64,000 nucleotides of DNA from Promethearchaeota archaeon. Its GTDB lineage: Archaea > Asgardarchaeota > Thorarchaeia > Thorarchaeales > Thorarchaeaceae. Position numbers and translations under genes: made by a program. The stretch is taken from NCBI GenBank assembly GCA_014728035.1, contig WJMJ01000046.1, positions 158,136 through 222,135 of the forward strand, in the 5' to 3' direction. Below, in pieces: positions 11,853 through 60,597 of the stretch (its first letter is position 1; every line of letters begins with the position of its first letter). The notes under the pieces are model-generated. The model did no database searches. It saw nothing but the letters and a program-made list of their open reading frames with translations, and had not been told where the DNA came from.

Positions 11853-12143
11853 TCAAGACTTCCAAATTTCAAGCAAGTTCTTAAGAGACCGAGCACGCAT
11901 GTCTTCATTACGATATCTGTAAATTTTAATTCTTCCAAATATTTTTTCCTCGATTAAACCAGATTCGAGTAGGACTTCTAAATGTGATTTAGTGGTACTA
12001 TGATTCAATCCAACTCTTCGACAAATCTCGGATATATTCAACTCTGTTTTATGTGCCAGTTCTTTAAGAATTTTAATTCTCCCTTTTGATGAAAGTAATT
12101 CTTCAATAGGAATACGTGATTCGAATTCGGATTCATCTTTAAT
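11853..12143 (-). CDS. ArsR-like winged-helix protein downstream of cdc6
   Basis: LNISEICRRVGLNHSTTKSHL..L...GLI HTH. Frame is open upstream of TTG 12041 through IEELLSSKGRIKILKEL; probable ATT start at 12143. Confidence 0.75.
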   Translation of the reverse strand: MKDESEFESRIPIEELLSSKGRIKILKELAHKTELNISEICRRVGLNHSTTKSHLEVLLESGLIEEKIFGRIKIYRYRNEDMRARSLKNLLEIWKS

Positions 12144-13371
12144 GAGAATTGCCTCCTTCAGTTAGTAGGTCTTGAATGAATTGTTCCAGTTTGTCTGCGG
12201 GAATCTCAGAAAGTCCAATCAATGTTGTTTGCCCTCTTTGACCAGTACTGGATTTCTTTGTATCCAATATATCGTGAGCTGTTAAATCTTGAACCCATTC
12301 CCAAACTTGAGTATGTGCACGTGCTTCTGTTTTATATTCTTCACAAACAGGATGGTACTCATCCTCAACCTCACCCATTGTTACATAAGCTGCTCGTGCT
12401 TCTTTCAGCCGTCTAGCTGTAGCAAGAAGCAATAGCTTATGATGGAAAGGAAGAGTTGTAAAAACTTCGTTGATTAGTTCCGGATGGGTATCAGCTTTTG
12501 CACGACGAACATAATCAGGAATTACAATGTTGTTTTGTTCATGATCTGCTTGTTTTCCTGCACGCCATAACAACTCTATTGCATATCTTGCATCACCACG
12601 TTCTGCAGCAATATCAGAAATAACATGCACTGTATCATCCAAAACAGTTTTTTTTTCAAACGCCATTTCAATTCTATCATATAAAATATCCATTAATTCA
12701 GCGGCATTGTATTTCTCAAAACGTAAAATATTCCGTTGTAATGTACTTAACGTGCTAGAGTCAAATAATTCATCACTAAGAGGAATGTTTCGTCCAATTC
12801 CAATCATTGAAACTCTTTGAGGTGCATTTAACCGATCATCCATTAGACGAGTTAAATCGTATATTATATCCACACCTTTGTTCCTGATGAAATAATCCAA
12901 CTCATCTAGCACAAGTATTAGAAAACGATCTTCCATATCAAGAACTTCAACTATTAATTGAAGTATCTCTTCTGGAGAATGACCACGTCTTGGGAATTTT
13001 GGTCTAAACTCACGCAAAATCCTAAGAAAAACAAGATACGTACTCTTGTTAACTCTACAATTTATGTGAATTTTATGAAGTCGAATATTTCTTCTATCCG
13101 CTGCTTGAATCAATTGCTCTGTGAATTTTTTTGTGACTGCAGTTTTGCCAGTTCCAACTGAACCTTCAATGATGAATTTTTGACTTGTTCTACCAGGTGA
13201 AGAAATAAGGCTCTTAAAAGATTGAGCTAAAATCCGCAATTCTTCATCCCGATGATGTAGCCTTTCAGGAACATAATCAATAGACAGGAAATGCTCTGAT
13301 TTAAATACACTGTCCTTACCTAATTCATCCTCAACAAAGTCCCGAGTCATCACTCTCGTGAATATTGGCAT
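12139..13371 (-). CDS. cdc6: Orc1/Cdc6 replication initiator
   Basis: DYVPERLHHRDEE, GSVGTGKT, INCR, LDELD, GDARYAI, C-terminal winged helix ending GQRGQTT. Confidence 0.95.
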   Translation of the reverse strand: MPIFTRVMTRDFVEDELGKDSVFKSEHFLSIDYVPERLHHRDEELRILAQSFKSLISSPGRTSQKFIIEGSVGTGKTAVTKKFTEQLIQAADRRNIRLHKIHINCRVNKSTYLVFLRILREFRPKFPRRGHSPEEILQLIVEVLDMEDRFLILVLDELDYFIRNKGVDIIYDLTRLMDDRLNAPQRVSMIGIGRNIPLSDELFDSSTLSTLQRNILRFEKYNAAELMDILYDRIEMAFEKKTVLDDTVHVISDIAAERGDARYAIELLWRAGKQADHEQNNIVIPDYVRRAKADTHPELINEVFTTLPFHHKLLLLATARRLKEARAAYVTMGEVEDEYHPVCEEYKTEARAHTQVWEWVQDLTAHDILDTKKSSTGQRGQTTLIGLSEIPADKLEQFIQDLLTEGGNSH

Positions 13372-13444
13372 ACTTTTAACTTAAAAGGATTATGTGGTTG
13401 TTCATTTAAACAGATATTCGGAGAGGGGGTGCCCGAAAGTATTG

Positions 13445-13520
13445 TTGGCGAGCTCCTTACTCAAGATCTCTATCATCATCATAAAGATTCAAAGGGGTCA
13501 TATCAGTCATCGCTCGCCAA
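13445..13520 (-). ncRNA. Box C/D guide sRNA (predicted pre-tRNA position-34 guide)
   Basis: 9-bp terminal stem TTGGCGAGC/GCTCGCCAA closing a K-turn (GAU bulge, GA/GA, CU/AG). Internal D' UUGA and C' AUGAUGA. Guides complementary to pre-tRNA-Leu and pre-tRNA-Met in this window. Confidence 0.75.
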
Positions 13521-13560
13521 GTAATAAGAGAAGATTTTGTCCTTAAGTATACCTAAAAGA

Positions 13561-13663
13561 TGCGAGCGCCGGGATTCGAATTCCCGCGATTTCACAAAGT
13601 GCAAAATCGTCCCGGGTCAAAAGCTTGGGAAGCTTCCGTCCTAACCAACTAGACTACGCTCGC
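13561..13663 (-). tRNA. tRNA-Gly(CCC) with 30-nt intron at 53/54 (13581-13610)
   Basis: GCGAGCG/CGCTCGC acceptor stem, GAAGC-TTCCCAA-GCTTT. Full BHB (CCCG/CGGG helix, GGA and AAT bulges); splicing restores CCGGG-TTCGAAT-CCCGG. Confidence 0.9.
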
Positions 13664-54940: not shown

Positions 54941-55057
54941 GCGGGAGTAGCCAAGACAGGCCAAAGGCGGCGGACTTAAGATCTTATGAATTAAGGGGTC
55001 ATCTGATGAGAGATCCGCTCTCATAGGAGTCCAGGGGATCGAAGCCCCTCTCCCGCA
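54941..55057 (+). tRNA. tRNA-Leu(TAA) with 32-nt intron at 37/38 (54981-55012)
   Basis: GCGGGAG/CTCCCGC acceptor stem, long variable arm, CTTA/TGAG BHB helix. Confidence 0.9.
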
Positions 55058-55111
55058 CTTTTTCATATCATTCAGAGATATCCTTATCGGTAGTATACAC
55101 AATCAAAATTT

Positions 55112-56431
55112 GTGGATAATATGGAATATATTGATCTTTTCTTTCCTGAAGGATTTCTGTGGGGTAGTGCTGCTGCTGCTCATCAAACTGAAGGTGGGAA
55201 TCATAACAATTGGAGCGAATGGGAGAAAATCCCTGGAAAAATAAAGGATGGTACGAATGCTGATGTTGCATGTGATCATTATAATCGTTATGAGGAGGAT
55301 TTTGACCTTGCTAAAGAATTAGGTCATCAAGTCCATCGGTTCTCAATTGAATGGAGTCGTATTGAACCATCTTTTGGAAAATGGGATTATACACAAATTG
55401 TTCACTACAAAAAAGTAATCGAATCACTTGTGAAACGTGGCATTCAGCCAATGGTCACACTCCATCATTTCACAAATCCAGTTTGGTTTGCTGAAAATGG
55501 GGATTGGTTGAATCCTGAGAGTCCTGAGTTATTTGGCCGATATTGTAGAAAAATTGTCCAGGAGCTTTCAAATTACGATGTAATTTGGAATACAATAAAT
55601 GAACCGATGGTTGTTGTTACTATTGGTTATCTTTGGGGTGATTTCCCTCCTGGTCACAATGATTTTGGAAAAGCTATCCAAGCGGCAAAACATCTTTTGA
55701 TGGCACATGGACAAGCATCAACTCAGATTAGAGAGGTCTATTCAGAAAAAGGGTTAGACCAACCAAAGATTGCTCCTGTACTAAGCACATCTTACATAAT
55801 GCCTGAGAACCCAGAAGACCCAGAAGACTTGGAATTAGCTGAATACATTGACAACCTGTACAATCACCTATGGATTGAATCAGCTATAACTGGGCGGATT
55901 CTGAATCCAATGGGTGATGGACAACGTTATGCCCCTCTTGAGAATTCAGTTGATTTCATTGGAGTTAACTACTATAGTCGAATGGTTGTATCCTCCAAAA
56001 GAGATTTCATGGCTGGCGAAATAGCTCCAAAAGATCCATACCGTGTTCGATGTGAGGGTCTTGAATGGGAATTTTATCCAGAAGGATATTATCATCAGAT
56101 TATGGACTATTGGAAGAAATATCAAAAACCAATATTTCTTACAGAGAATGGTATTGGCACAAGCGATGACCGTATTCGTCAGAGATACATTATCTCCCAT
56201 CTACAGCAGGTCCATAAAGCAATTCAAGATGGTGCCAAAGTTGATGGGTATCTTGTTTGGAGTCTTACTGATAATTTTGAATGGGCTCAAGGATTCAGTA
56301 GCCATTTTGGTATAATTGAGTGTGACTTTGATACGTTGAAACGTAAACCACGTGAAAGTGCATTCATGTTGCGAAAAATTATCAAAGATAATGGACTTGT
56401 AAAAGAAACGCAAGAAACGTATCTTGCTTAA
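55112..56431 (+). CDS. Glycoside hydrolase family 1 (beta-glucosidase-like)
   Basis: FLWG.A.AAHQ.EG, RFSIEWSR, TINEP, LTENG, DNFEW. Confidence 0.95.
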   Translation: MDNMEYIDLFFPEGFLWGSAAAAHQTEGGNHNNWSEWEKIPGKIKDGTNADVACDHYNRYEEDFDLAKELGHQVHRFSIEWSRIEPSFGKWDYTQIVHYKKVIESLVKRGIQPMVTLHHFTNPVWFAENGDWLNPESPELFGRYCRKIVQELSNYDVIWNTINEPMVVVTIGYLWGDFPPGHNDFGKAIQAAKHLLMAHGQASTQIREVYSEKGLDQPKIAPVLSTSYIMPENPEDPEDLELAEYIDNLYNHLWIESAITGRILNPMGDGQRYAPLENSVDFIGVNYYSRMVVSSKRDFMAGEIAPKDPYRVRCEGLEWEFYPEGYYHQIMDYWKKYQKPIFLTENGIGTSDDRIRQRYIISHLQQVHKAIQDGAKVDGYLVWSLTDNFEWAQGFSSHFGIIECDFDTLKRKPRESAFMLRKIIKDNGLVKETQETYLA

Positions 56432-56481
56432 GTTTTGCATTTAGAATTAACTTCATTTGCTTGTAAAGGTGTGATCATGTC

Positions 56482-57045
56482 ATGCCTGCACAAGTATTTC
56501 TTGCATCGCTTATTATTGTCTTTTTAACAGAGCTTGGTGATAAAACGATGATTGCAACAATATTGCTTAGTGCAGAACACAGACAACCTTCACTTGTGTT
56601 AATTGCTTCTTTAGCTGCATTGGCTACATCTACTTTTATTGCTATAATCATTGGCGTTGTATTATCTTCAGCATTACCATTAGATTTAATCATCTACCTT
56701 TCAGGAGTGATTTTCATCGTATTAGGTCTATATACTCTTTTTAAAAAAGAGGAATCTGAAGAAACCACTGAAAACACTCAAATCACATTTTTGAGTATGT
56801 TTTCTTTGGTACTTGTTTCAGAACTTGGTGATAAGAGCCAGCTTGCAATATTAGCTATTGCAGCTCAGTCTCTATTTCCAGCTTTCGTCTTTATTGGTGC
56901 AGTCACTGGCTTCCTATTGTTGAATTCGATTGGTGCATTCTCGGGTGATAAGATTGGGGAAAACCTTCCAATGAATGCCATTCGGGCTTTCACAGGAATT
57001 GTTTTCATTATTATTGGCACACTCGTTCTCTTTAGAATGATGTGA
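56482..57045 (+). CDS. TMEM165/GDT1 (UPF0016) Ca/Mn transporter
   Basis: Two ELGDK(T/S) motifs. Confidence 0.92.
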   Translation: MPAQVFLASLIIVFLTELGDKTMIATILLSAEHRQPSLVLIASLAALATSTFIAIIIGVVLSSALPLDLIIYLSGVIFIVLGLYTLFKKEESEETTENTQITFLSMFSLVLVSELGDKSQLAILAIAAQSLFPAFVFIGAVTGFLLLNSIGAFSGDKIGENLPMNAIRAFTGIVFIIIGTLVLFRMM

Positions 57046-57084
57046 TGTTGCGACAAATTTATGACCTGTGAGTAAGAGTTTCGC

Positions 57085-58461
57085 TTGACTGAAGGTGTAG
57101 AAACGTTGGTCCTAGAAGATTCCGGATATATTGGATTGGTTCTCGAGAAACTTGTCAGTGCGGATCTCAAAGTTGGTGACACTTTAACTATAATCGGTTC
57201 TGATCAGGAATATACTGGCATTCTTATGCCCAGAGCATCGGTAGGAGCAAACTCCGACCATATTGTTCTAAAACTTGAAAATGGATACAACATTGGAGTT
57301 CGCTTGAGTGCAAAGGCCAAAGTCAAAAAAACGAAATCTAGGATTGTAAAAAAAGCTAAATCCAGCTCAAAACTGGATTTTAAATCTCATCTTCCAACCG
57401 TTTCGATTCTCAGCACTGGTGGCACTATTGCCAGCAAAGTTGACTATCAAACGGGTGCGGTCAATCCTGCCTTAACCGCTCAAGATTTGTATGACACAAT
57501 TCCCGAACTTCAAAAACATGTCAACATTCGTGCTGAAATTGTAATGAGCAAGCTGTCAGAGAATATTTCTCCATCTGATTGGACAATAATAGCAAAGAAA
57601 GCTGCCAGTCATATTCGTGATGGGATTGATGGTCTAGTAATTGCTCATGGTACTGATACTTTGAGTTATACTGGTGCTGCTCTTTCTTTCGCATTACAAA
57701 ATCTGCCCGTTCCAATCGCATTAGTCGGTTCTCAACGTTCTTCGGATAGGCCATCTTCGGATGCTTCACTGAATCTAATTCATGCAACTGATTTTGTTTC
57801 CCGTGGAAATATTGCTGAAGTCTCTATTGTGATGCATGGTGAAACTAGTGATAGTTTTACATATGCACATCGTGCTGTCAGAACGCGAAAATGTCATACT
57901 AGTAGACGAGATGCATTTCAATCAATTAACTCAACACCTCTATTTCGAATTGATAACTCAGGTATTACAGAGCTTGTTACTCCTATCTGCAGACGTGACT
58001 CCAGTAGAAAGATATCCGTGAAACCAAAATTTGAGAAAAAAGTGGCTCTTATCAAGATTCATCCTGGTACATCTCCCAACTTAATTGATTTTCTGACCTC
58101 ATCCGGTTTTCGTGGTATTGTTCTAGAAGGTACAGGGTTAGGGCATTCATCAAAGAACCTGCAAGAAGCTATCTCATCCGCAATTGAATCCGATATACTT
58201 GTTGCAATGACTAGTCAATGTATTAATGGACGTATTAACATGAATGTCTATCGTTCTGGTGTTGAATTGTTAGAATGTGGTGTGATTCCTTGTGAAGATA
58301 TGATTGCTGAAACTGCACTTGTAAAGATGATGTGGATACTTGGCAATACGCAGAGTATCAAAAAGGCTCGAAAACAGATGGTTACCAACCTTGTTGGAGA
58401 AATAGGTATGCGTTCAGAATACGAAGAATATCATTATGATGTTGAAGGAGATGCTGATTAA
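57085..58461 (+). CDS. gatD: Glu-tRNA(Gln) amidotransferase subunit D
   Basis: KLENGYNIG, TGGTIAS.VDY.TG, HGTDT, SQRSSDRPSSD. Confidence 0.96.
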   Translation: MTEGVETLVLEDSGYIGLVLEKLVSADLKVGDTLTIIGSDQEYTGILMPRASVGANSDHIVLKLENGYNIGVRLSAKAKVKKTKSRIVKKAKSSSKLDFKSHLPTVSILSTGGTIASKVDYQTGAVNPALTAQDLYDTIPELQKHVNIRAEIVMSKLSENISPSDWTIIAKKAASHIRDGIDGLVIAHGTDTLSYTGAALSFALQNLPVPIALVGSQRSSDRPSSDASLNLIHATDFVSRGNIAEVSIVMHGETSDSFTYAHRAVRTRKCHTSRRDAFQSINSTPLFRIDNSGITELVTPICRRDSSRKISVKPKFEKKVALIKIHPGTSPNLIDFLTSSGFRGIVLEGTGLGHSSKNLQEAISSAIESDILVAMTSQCINGRINMNVYRSGVELLECGVIPCEDMIAETALVKMMWILGNTQSIKKARKQMVTNLVGEIGMRSEYEEYHYDVEGDAD

Positions 58462-60371
58462 TGGATACGCAATATGAAGAACTTGGGCTTATGGTTGGTC
58501 TCGAATTACATCAGCAACTTGATACCTTCAGAAAACTCTATTGTCATTGTCCTACTTCAATCCGAGAAGACTCACCTCATGGTGTTTTCGAACGACGCCT
58601 TCGCCCCACTCAAAGCGAAATGGGTGCAATAGATCCTGCAGCGCTATTTGAGTTTCAAAGAAAAAAGGTATTTTGCTATGAGTATTATAATGACTCAACA
58701 TGTCTTGTTGAAGCAGATGAAGAACCTCCTCACAATCTATGTCAGGAAGCAATTGATATCTGTCTAACAATGGCAACATTTCTAAAATCAAAACCGGTTG
58801 AAGAGATACACCCTATGCGAAAGATTGTGATTGATGGTAGCAACACTACTGGTTTCCAACGAACTGCAATTATTGCTATGAATGGATCTATTGTCGTTGA
58901 TGAGAAGGAAATTAGAATCCAAACACTTTGTTTAGAAGAGGATGCTGCTAGAAAAATCAGGGATGATGAAAGAAACAATCGAAGGATTTATCGACTTGAT
59001 CGACTTGGAATTCCTTTAATCGAAATTGCAACCGCACCGGATATTCGTTCTCCCGATGAGGCACAAGAAGTTGCATTAGCACTCGGACTTCTCCTACGTT
59101 CTACTGGAAAGGTCAAACGTGGACTTGGCACTATTCGACAAGATGTCAATGTTTCTATTCGTGGTGGTGGAATTATCGAGATAAAGGGCCTTCAACAGCT
59201 GAATATGTTATCTCTTGTCGTTGAATTGGAGGCTCAAAGACAGGAGCAACTTCTTAAAATCAAGGATGAACTTGAAGCTAGGGGTATCACCGAGAAAATG
59301 GTTGATTTCACACCAATTAATGTGTCTGAAGTCTTTTCAAAGAGTGAATCAAAGCTAATTTCAAATACGATCAAATCTGGTGGCACTGTCTATGCTGTAT
59401 GTTTACCTGGCTTTGATAGTCTTTTAGGTATTGAATTACAACCTGAACGTCGTTTTGGCACAGAACTATCTGACTATGCTAAATTCTGGGGTGGTGTTGG
59501 TGGGATTTTCCATACCGATGAGCTCCCTAAATATGGGATTTCTAGTTCTGAAGTAGAAGAACTTAGAAAGCAGGTAGATGCTCATCCTTCTGATGCTGTT
59601 GTTATTGTTGCATCATCTGAGAAGAATTGCATTGATGCTCTTGATGCTGTTGTGAAACGAGCCAAGGCTGCGGTTAAAGGTGTTCCTGCTGAAACACGGA
59701 TTCCTCTTCCATCTGGAGCATCAAAATACGCTCGTCCTCGTCCAGGTGCAGAACGTATGTATCCTGAAACTGATGTACGTCCTGTTATTGTAACTCCCAA
59801 GCTTTTGAAACAGATTGAGAAGAATCTTCCTGAAACTCTTGAAGAAAAGAAAAATCGATTTGTAGAGGAGTATAACTTGAGTCTTGAATTGGCTGAACAG
59901 ATAACAAGATCATTGAACTTGTCACTCTTTGAAGATATTGTTTCCACTTATGATATCGATCCGACTTTAGTGGTCGTAACACTTGAAAATACTATGGTTA
60001 GCTTGATTCGTGATGGCATTCCTGTAGAATCAGTAAAAGAAAACGATATACTTGAAATTTTCAAATTGATTCAAGAAGAACAGATATCTTCAGAAGCCAT
60101 CCCACAACTCATATCCTACTTGGCAGAGCATCCTAACTCTGATGTTTCAGAAGCTTTAGATGAAACTGGACTTTCAAAGGTAGATGAAGAGAATCTTGAA
60201 GATATTATACAAGATATTGTAACCACTCGTATTGATTTTGTAAAAGAGAAGGGTGAACAATCAATAGGTGGTCTCATGGGTGTTGCTATGAAAAGACTTC
60301 GTGGAAAAGCTGATGGTAAAAAGGTCAGAGATATGCTGCAATCTGAGATAAGACGAATTCTCGCTGAATAA
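58461..60371 (+). CDS. gatE: Glu-tRNA(Gln) amidotransferase subunit E
   Basis: GLELHQQL, DGSNTTGFQRT, LEED, RMYPETD. Confidence 0.96.
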   Translation: MDTQYEELGLMVGLELHQQLDTFRKLYCHCPTSIREDSPHGVFERRLRPTQSEMGAIDPAALFEFQRKKVFCYEYYNDSTCLVEADEEPPHNLCQEAIDICLTMATFLKSKPVEEIHPMRKIVIDGSNTTGFQRTAIIAMNGSIVVDEKEIRIQTLCLEEDAARKIRDDERNNRRIYRLDRLGIPLIEIATAPDIRSPDEAQEVALALGLLLRSTGKVKRGLGTIRQDVNVSIRGGGIIEIKGLQQLNMLSLVVELEAQRQEQLLKIKDELEARGITEKMVDFTPINVSEVFSKSESKLISNTIKSGGTVYAVCLPGFDSLLGIELQPERRFGTELSDYAKFWGGVGGIFHTDELPKYGISSSEVEELRKQVDAHPSDAVVIVASSEKNCIDALDAVVKRAKAAVKGVPAETRIPLPSGASKYARPRPGAERMYPETDVRPVIVTPKLLKQIEKNLPETLEEKKNRFVEEYNLSLELAEQITRSLNLSLFEDIVSTYDIDPTLVVVTLENTMVSLIRDGIPVESVKENDILEIFKLIQEEQISSEAIPQLISYLAEHPNSDVSEALDETGLSKVDEENLEDIIQDIVTTRIDFVKEKGEQSIGGLMGVAMKRLRGKADGKKVRDMLQSEIRRILAE

Positions 60372-60427
60372 CCAATGAGCGAAGAATAACCTTATTAGAA
60401 GATTCCAATCTGCAAACAGATACCTGT

Positions 60428-60597
60428 GCCGCAGTGGCCTAGCCTGGTTAGGGCGCGAGACTCATAATCTTCCCGGACTATTCCGGGATGAAGAATGGGG
60501 TCATTGAGTGTGCGTCCCCCAATGGGCAATCTCGAATCGTTATGAGATTTCCTCTTATCGAGAAACGTCGAGGGCTCGAATCCCTCCTGCGGCACCA
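60428..60597 (+). tRNA. Elongator tRNA-Met(CAT) with two introns (37/38: 60467-60528; 44/45: 60536-60565)
   Basis: GCCGCAG/CTGCGGC-ACCA. CTCA/TGGG and TCTC/GAGA BHB-type helices; removing both introns restores a standard cloverleaf. Confidence 0.85.

Follow-up and report, generated by a model that had tools for sequence, protein, structure and literature searches.

Four guides have been reported in Pyrococcus for base 34 of tRNA-Leu(CAA) and tRNA-Leu(UAA) and also of tRNA-Met and tRNA-Trp (PMC7994747), and for sR47 of P. abyssi the methylation of C34 in tRNA-Leu(CAA) was demonstrated in vitro (PMC3413156). Here we describe a box C/D small RNA (sRNA) and two tRNA introns in a stretch of 64,000 nucleotides (nt) from a Promethearchaeota archaeon of the Thorarchaeia (contig WJMJ01000046.1, positions 158,136 to 222,135; hereafter the window). 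The D guide of this sRNA has the same target string as sR47, and its second arm, the D′ guide, is complementary to a short motif, hereafter the handle, inside introns of the tRNA-Leu(UAA) and elongator tRNA-Met(CAU) genes. The pairing of the guide with such tags in three tRNA introns, the third being that of tRNA-Trp(CCA), is almost certainly real and under selection. We put the probability at about two in three that the handle is a methylation anchor, by which the D′ arm would secure a weak D duplex for 2′-O-methylation of base 34.

The likeness to sR47, drawn from the D-guide target string around the CAA anticodon rather than from whole-RNA sequences, extends to the same N+5 register and the same protein machinery: the Asgard D guide is complementary to bases 31–40 of tRNA-Leu(CAA), with C34 at N+5. 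However, sR47 was described for one tRNA, whereas the second arm of the Asgard sRNA pairs with handles and would add tRNA-Met, tRNA-Trp and tRNA-Leu(UAA).

Intron-dependent methylation of base 34 is itself already known. In Euryarchaeota, the Cm34 guide sR49, also named sR-tMet, pairs a few bases into the intron of pre-tRNA-Met (PMC2584109, Additional file 5), which implies that methylation occurs before splicing. The Asgard sRNA resembles it as a trans-acting guide that spans the anticodon into the first intron bases. The D guide of sR49/sR-tMet, however, fits tRNA-Met perfectly and needs only three bases of an intron that starts with GGG, whereas the guide in the window is a different one, with two mismatches to tRNA-Met and an AUC intron start. 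The D′ guide of sR49/sR-tMet is unconserved, and in Methanoculleus and Methanothrix its match to the Met intron is a chance-level 5 bp. An sR49-like RNA of Methanomassiliicoccales (L439), for which no Met gene was recovered, has a D′ guide that contains GGGUCAG in the same sense as the Asgard handle, probably by coincidence.

In the case of sR50, the guide within the tRNA-Trp intron (Cm34/Um39; reviewed in PMC7994747), a tRNA intron likewise serves wobble methylation under selection. That intron is itself the guide, whereas here the intron carries the tag of a target, and the Thorarchaeota Trp intron is without C/D boxes. The tRNA-Trp of a genome from another Asgard family (G081, L421) has an intron resembling the classical C/D-guide intron; set beside the box-less Thorarchaeota introns, this looks like a change of role, with intron-as-guide giving way to intron-as-tag.

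Support of methylation by additional pairing close to the target is known from archaeal dual-guide sRNAs (PMC6009581) and from the extra base-pairing of C/D small nucleolar RNAs on rRNA, which aids methylation up to five-fold in yeast (PMC3116282). Those cases pair with mature rRNA, whereas the partner here is a disposable intron, shared by several tRNAs and movable in position. In Pyrobaculum, scans of mature tRNA left about 80% of the tRNA-targeting sRNAs with an orphan second guide. In a literature search with incomplete coverage of the primary papers, no paper came up that describes either the Asgard sRNA or a D′ guide directed against a motif shared by tRNA introns.

The box C/D sRNA

The sRNA gene and its elements are as follows (window positions):

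13445–13520, reverse strand: box C/D sRNA gene, between tRNA-Gly(CCC) and cdc6; terminal stem z −3.2; 30 orthologs in the Thorarchaeota family (hereafter the family)
13504–13510, reverse strand: C box, variant AUGACUG, in the terminal kink-turn; GA dinucleotides invariant, stem II pairs covarying with the D box
13493–13503, reverse strand: D′ guide, antisense to the intron handle; N+5 is the C at 13497
13489–13492, reverse strand: D′ box UUGA; UGA invariant in the 30 orthologs
13470–13476, reverse strand: C′ box AUGAUAG; UGA invariant in the 30 orthologs
13458–13469, reverse strand: D guide, antisense to tRNA bases 31–37 plus AUC(U); N+5 is the G at 13462, facing base 34
13454–13457, reverse strand: D box, variant AGGA, where many Asgard orthologs have the canonical CUGA
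13542–13547, reverse strand: TATA-like element, upstream of the sRNA by about 29 nt; located at −27 to −32 in 26 of 30 family loci

The C, D′, C′ and D boxes stand in order, together with the kink-turn GA pairs and a terminal stem of 8 bp, and an internal D′/C′ pair closes a short stem; the GA and UGA letters are invariant and the stems covary (0 of 500 shuffles). The variant C and D boxes compensate each other in their stem II letters. All GA pairs and both guides are invariant in the 30 family orthologs while the loops drift, and two-sided changes occur at 7 of the 14 stem pairs. With a covariance model, one copy of the sRNA was recovered in 109 of 150 Asgard genomes. The D-guide core is identical in all 44 Asgard sRNAs inspected, nearly all of which have a single base between it and the D box; in the sRNAs of family f16 (L329, L330, L344) three bases separate the two, so that the N+5 register would shift unless two bases bulge.

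The TATA-like element is probably the sRNA's own promoter. When the sRNA was searched against Rfam, no family reached the gathering threshold and only weak generic C/D matches were returned. The genes for Nop5 and fibrillarin adjoin the tRNA-Trp gene, and an L7Ae-family gene is also encoded in the genome; the genes for this protein set are placed at G000:C9:68.8–70.3 kb. As for rRNA, the best matches of either arm in four genomes were 7–8 bp and none was conserved. A pattern search of this genome found no separate guide for tRNA-Met or tRNA-Leu(UAA); a collection-wide pattern scan was too loose and gave mostly chance matches. Just 3′ of the sRNA (13428–13440, reverse strand), before cdc6 (12139–13371), lies the 9-nt word TACTTTCGG followed by a C-rich run, an arrangement conserved in nearly all 30 family loci and possibly a Cdc6-binding or promoter element.

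Targets of the D guide

The D-guide target, base 34, was assigned by the N+5 rule. The guide forms 10 contiguous Watson-Crick pairs with pre-tRNA-Leu(CAA), with C34 at N+5, and 11 pairs with tRNA-Leu(UAA), where the pair at N+5 is G·U34 and not Watson-Crick. Trp(CCA) has one mismatch (D+6) and Met has two (D+7 and D+8), both with a Watson-Crick G-C pair at N+5. The duplex energies in this genome are −16.1 kcal/mol for Leu(CAA), −15.6 for Leu(UAA), −13.0 for Trp and −10.6 for Met. The Met and Trp duplexes fit the finding that mismatches beyond positions 3–5 are tolerated in a tethered hemi-complex (PMC1635284).

The final three or four D-guide pairs fall on the start of the intron. An earlier note on this DNA had described a shared AUCUU start in the Leu(UAA) and Met introns; both window introns do begin so, but across relatives no more than AUC is invariant, and this holds for each of the four intron types (Leu(UAA), Met, Trp and Leu(CAA)). 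AUCUU itself was found in just 3/27 Leu, 13/28 Met and 5/30 Trp introns, so it was rejected as a conserved element and appears partly incidental. A non-canonical intron of this genome, in Leu(UAG), likewise begins with AUCUU and has no handle motif. The invariant intron base C3 pairs within the outer (h′) helix of the bulge-helix-bulge (BHB) in no more than 3 of 30 Trp and 10 of 27 Leu(UAA) introns, and the AUC of the Trp introns does not copy the 3′ exon. We take AUC to be conserved because the D-guide pairing extends into the intron start.

The handle and its distribution among tRNA introns

The tRNA genes and introns concerned are the following:

54941–55057, forward strand: tRNA-Leu(UAA) gene, U34 at 54977; Rfam tRNA match, and ARAGORN with the intron option
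54981–55012, forward strand: 37/38 BHB intron of tRNA-Leu(UAA), 32 nt; initial bases pair with the D guide; central helix of bases 32–35 with 55007–55010
54994–55002, forward strand: handle of the Leu(UAA) intron, complementary to the D′ guide over 9 bp; GGGUCA in 26 of 27 orthologous introns
60428–60597, forward strand: elongator tRNA-Met(CAU) gene, interrupted by two introns; C34 at 60463; Rfam, ARAGORN
60467–60528, forward strand: 37/38 BHB intron 1 of tRNA-Met, 62 nt; central helix of bases 32–35 with 60523–60526
60497–60504, forward strand: handle of Met intron 1, 8-bp complement of the D′ guide; GGGGUCA in 29 of 30 orthologous introns
60537–60566, forward strand: Met intron 2, 30 nt, in the variable region, without a handle; missing from many relatives by ortholog comparison

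Both 37/38 introns of the window have the 4-bp central helix, the two 3-nt bulges and the cut after base 37 of a BHB. The central helices read CUUA/UGAG (Leu) and CUCA/UGGG (Met), and all four pairs are present in 22/27 Leu(UAA) and 26/28 Met orthologs. The internal element GGGGUCAU, which the earlier note had also placed in both introns, is present as an 8-mer at 54995–55002 (Leu) and 60497–60504 (Met); the only other copy in the whole window is at 13494–13501, within the proposed guide. As that note had it, the three non-canonical introns of the window (Gly CCC, Glu CUC and Met intron 2) lack the element. Three copies are not significant as a count (1.1 are expected, and 10 of 100 shuffles of the window reach 3); the significance of the tag lies in its placement and conservation.

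In the family, GGGUCA was found in 26/27 Leu(UAA), 29/30 Met and 29/30 Trp(CCA) introns, and in none of 22 introns of Leu(CAA), the only perfect target of the D guide. Each exception differs by a single change and preserves most of the pairing, the odd Met intron pairing by G·U. In this genome, 3 of 28 intron-bearing tRNA genes have the handle, the third being the tRNA-Trp gene outside the window (intron at G000:C9:72573), and none of the other 25 has it; it is absent from Leu(CAA) and from the intron-bearing Gln, Glu, Arg, Lys, Ser, Pro and Ala genes. The idea that the motif tracks pyrimidine-34 anticodons in general was rejected, given that other intron-bearing genes with U34 or C34 have no handle: it occurs in Leu(UAA), Met(CAU) and Trp(CCA) alone, and so follows the imperfect targets of the D guide. 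The duplex energies of the D′ arm in this genome agree, with −2.5 kcal/mol for Leu(CAA) versus −15.5 for Leu(UAA), −16.7 for Trp and −14.8 for Met.

The usual Thorarchaeota Trp intron is 58–60 nt long. In its place, the Trp genes of five genomes (G019, G061, G028, G029 and G062; L106, L109, L110, L121 and L122) carry a Leu(UAA)-type intron of 33–34 nt, with the handle kept.

Covariation of guide and handle across Asgard families

The D′ guide differs among Asgard families, and the word in the Met intron changes to match it. At least five distinct handle sequences were found, each matching its own D′ guide, and Met introns match their own guide in G040 and G065, G164, G060, G079, G122, G143, G085 and G109. 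In a permutation analysis with one genome for each of 11 families, the D′ guide/Met intron duplex averaged 9.0 bp for cognate and 5.7 bp for non-cognate combinations, and 0 of 20,000 permutations reached the observed sum (p = 5e-5). For Leu(UAA) introns the corresponding values were 8.3 and 6.7 (p = 0.0004–0.01), and Leu(CAA) introns gave no covariation signal with the D′ guide across the families. For Trp, the gene pattern found one real gene outside the Thorarchaeota family.

The Leu(UAA) handle is not always found at the same place: several lineages have it upstream of the anticodon, in an intron of the D loop, or else in one of the variable arm, which indicates that the handle is tied to being intronic and not to a position; the D′ register shifts by at most 2 nt between lineages. 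The handles in the variable-arm introns of G048 and G058 (L406 and L390) have a one-base insertion, a bulge relative to the guide.

The earlier note had proposed that the motif is a docking site for the guide at 13445–13520 with a selected function, and had named its absence from orthologous introns, or its lack of relation to the guide, as grounds for giving this up. The motif is present in the orthologs, is an exact complement of the D′ guide and changes with it, all of which supports the proposal.

Neighbouring genes and other features

Between tRNA-Leu(UAA) and tRNA-Met(CAU) lie genes for a glycosidase, a GDT1 transporter and gatD-gatE. The T-loop intron of tRNA-Gly(CCC), within 13561–13663, and Met intron 2 are both 30 nt long and patchy among relatives. 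Elsewhere in the assembly, contigs C26, C161 and C122 of G000 bear dense arrays of intronless, non-host-like tRNA genes (19 on C26), which suggests a viral or contaminating contig in the bin (contamination 8.5%).

Discussion

From the anatomy and pairings described above, we infer that the sRNA is expressed, binds as a ribonucleoprotein (RNP) and directs base-34 methylation, which the handle would raise. With L7Ae, Nop5 and fibrillarin, the sRNA would form a dual-arm box C/D RNP that contacts the unspliced pre-tRNA at two sites. The D arm would pair across the anticodon and the first intron bases and thereby set base 34 for 2′-O-methylation. Leu(CAA), with its perfect fit, would need no help, whereas in Met, Trp and Leu(UAA), where the fit is imperfect, the D′ arm would grip the handle with 7–11 bp. 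The handle duplex (−15 to −17 kcal/mol) could then offset the weak D duplex of Met (−10.6) and Trp (−13.0), so that fibrillarin can act. The D arm covers a strand of the central helix and the 5′ splice site, and from this pairing RNP binding and splicing would be mutually exclusive; after methylation the RNP would leave, the BHB refold and splicing follow, the handle being lost with the intron. One guide would thus serve four tRNAs for which Pyrococcus reportedly uses four.

Several points weigh against the anchor reading. Methylation is held to require a Watson-Crick pair at N+5 (PMC6009581), and with G·U at this position a Um34 on Leu(UAA) is doubtful; this is the weakest step. In addition, two family genomes keep the sRNA beside an intronless Leu(UAA) gene, and the handle is therefore not indispensable for Leu(UAA). 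Some Asgard Leu(CAA) genes do bear a handle (G050 and G037), so the rule that only imperfect targets carry it is not absolute. The handle is also largely predicted to be paired within the Met and Trp introns (unpaired probability 0.1–0.4), and being partly buried in their helices it must be opened. Within the family, covariation of the handle flanks is weak (p about 0.01, with non-independent genomes and a few mis-placed handles), and beyond the family the introns were collected with patterns that overlook many genes, families being taken as independent.

Though unlikely, the same pairing might serve the control of folding or splicing, the RNP unfolding the BHB as a chaperone or timer with only Leu(CAA) being methylated. 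The G·U at N+5 in all Leu(UAA) cases, the overlap of the handle with intron helices, the D′ register that varies between lineages and the conserved guide pairings without methylation known in Pyrobaculum would all suit such a role. However, the handle carriers are exactly the known Nm34 set (Leu, Met and Trp; PMC7994747), Met and Trp keep their Watson-Crick G-C at N+5, dozens of other introns are spliced without a handle, and the pattern search yielded no separate Met guide. A clearly less probable role for the D′ arm is that of an ordinary second guide methylating a G of the intron, for example as a stabilising or marking modification of the precursor or of the excised circle. Its C′/D′ boxes are intact and, across the family, the C at N+5 of the D′ guide faces an invariant G of the handle, but the modified base would be thrown away, the register and the position of the handle (37/38, D-loop or variable-arm intron) vary by lineage, and the restriction of the handle to targets of the D guide would be left unexplained. 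Such methylation may still occur as a by-product of the anchor mechanism.

It is very improbable that the motif merely reflects intron copying and intron-internal structure, with a historical or accidental match to the sRNA. Three genomes do have a Trp intron that nearly duplicates that of Leu(UAA), and the handle often pairs within its own intron; yet the handle stays invariant as the intron bases that it pairs with change, the 32-nt and 62-nt introns of the window cannot be aligned outside the two motifs, and the compensatory change with a trans-encoded guide across 11 families refutes plain copying. Copying is real, but it is the carrier of the tag and not the cause of its conservation. Hardly credible at all is the notion that the introns are themselves C/D guides, as in the euryarchaeal Trp intron, with GGGGUCAU as a guide element. 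Box-like words do flank the motif in this genome, CUGA (Leu) or UUGA (Met) after it and AUGAA-like words before it, but they are not conserved in orthologous introns, the Leu intron has only 32 nt, and the separate sRNA, on the complementary strand, combines the four boxes with a stem and a probable promoter; this candidate was rejected, boxes being unconserved in the Leu, Met and Thorarchaeota Trp introns.

The retention of tRNA introns calls for an explanation, and in Asgard genomes these introns are unusually frequent (PMC11291895). Co-evolution of an intron tag with a guide acting in trans gives direct evidence, from comparison, for a selected intron function. The case shows how a single guide can stand in for four, and from these sequences tRNA introns probably help one guide to modify several tRNAs. 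Orphan second guides, screened only against mature tRNA, gain a class of targets. A further reading, which we hold only tentatively, is that the handles are portable, position-independent intron tags, that the D′ anchor licenses methylation of mismatched wobble sites (G·U34 included) and blocks splicing meanwhile, and that gain or copying of introns could reprogram the targets of the guide. If true, this would be a selected function of tRNA introns in the archaeal lineage closest to eukaryotes.

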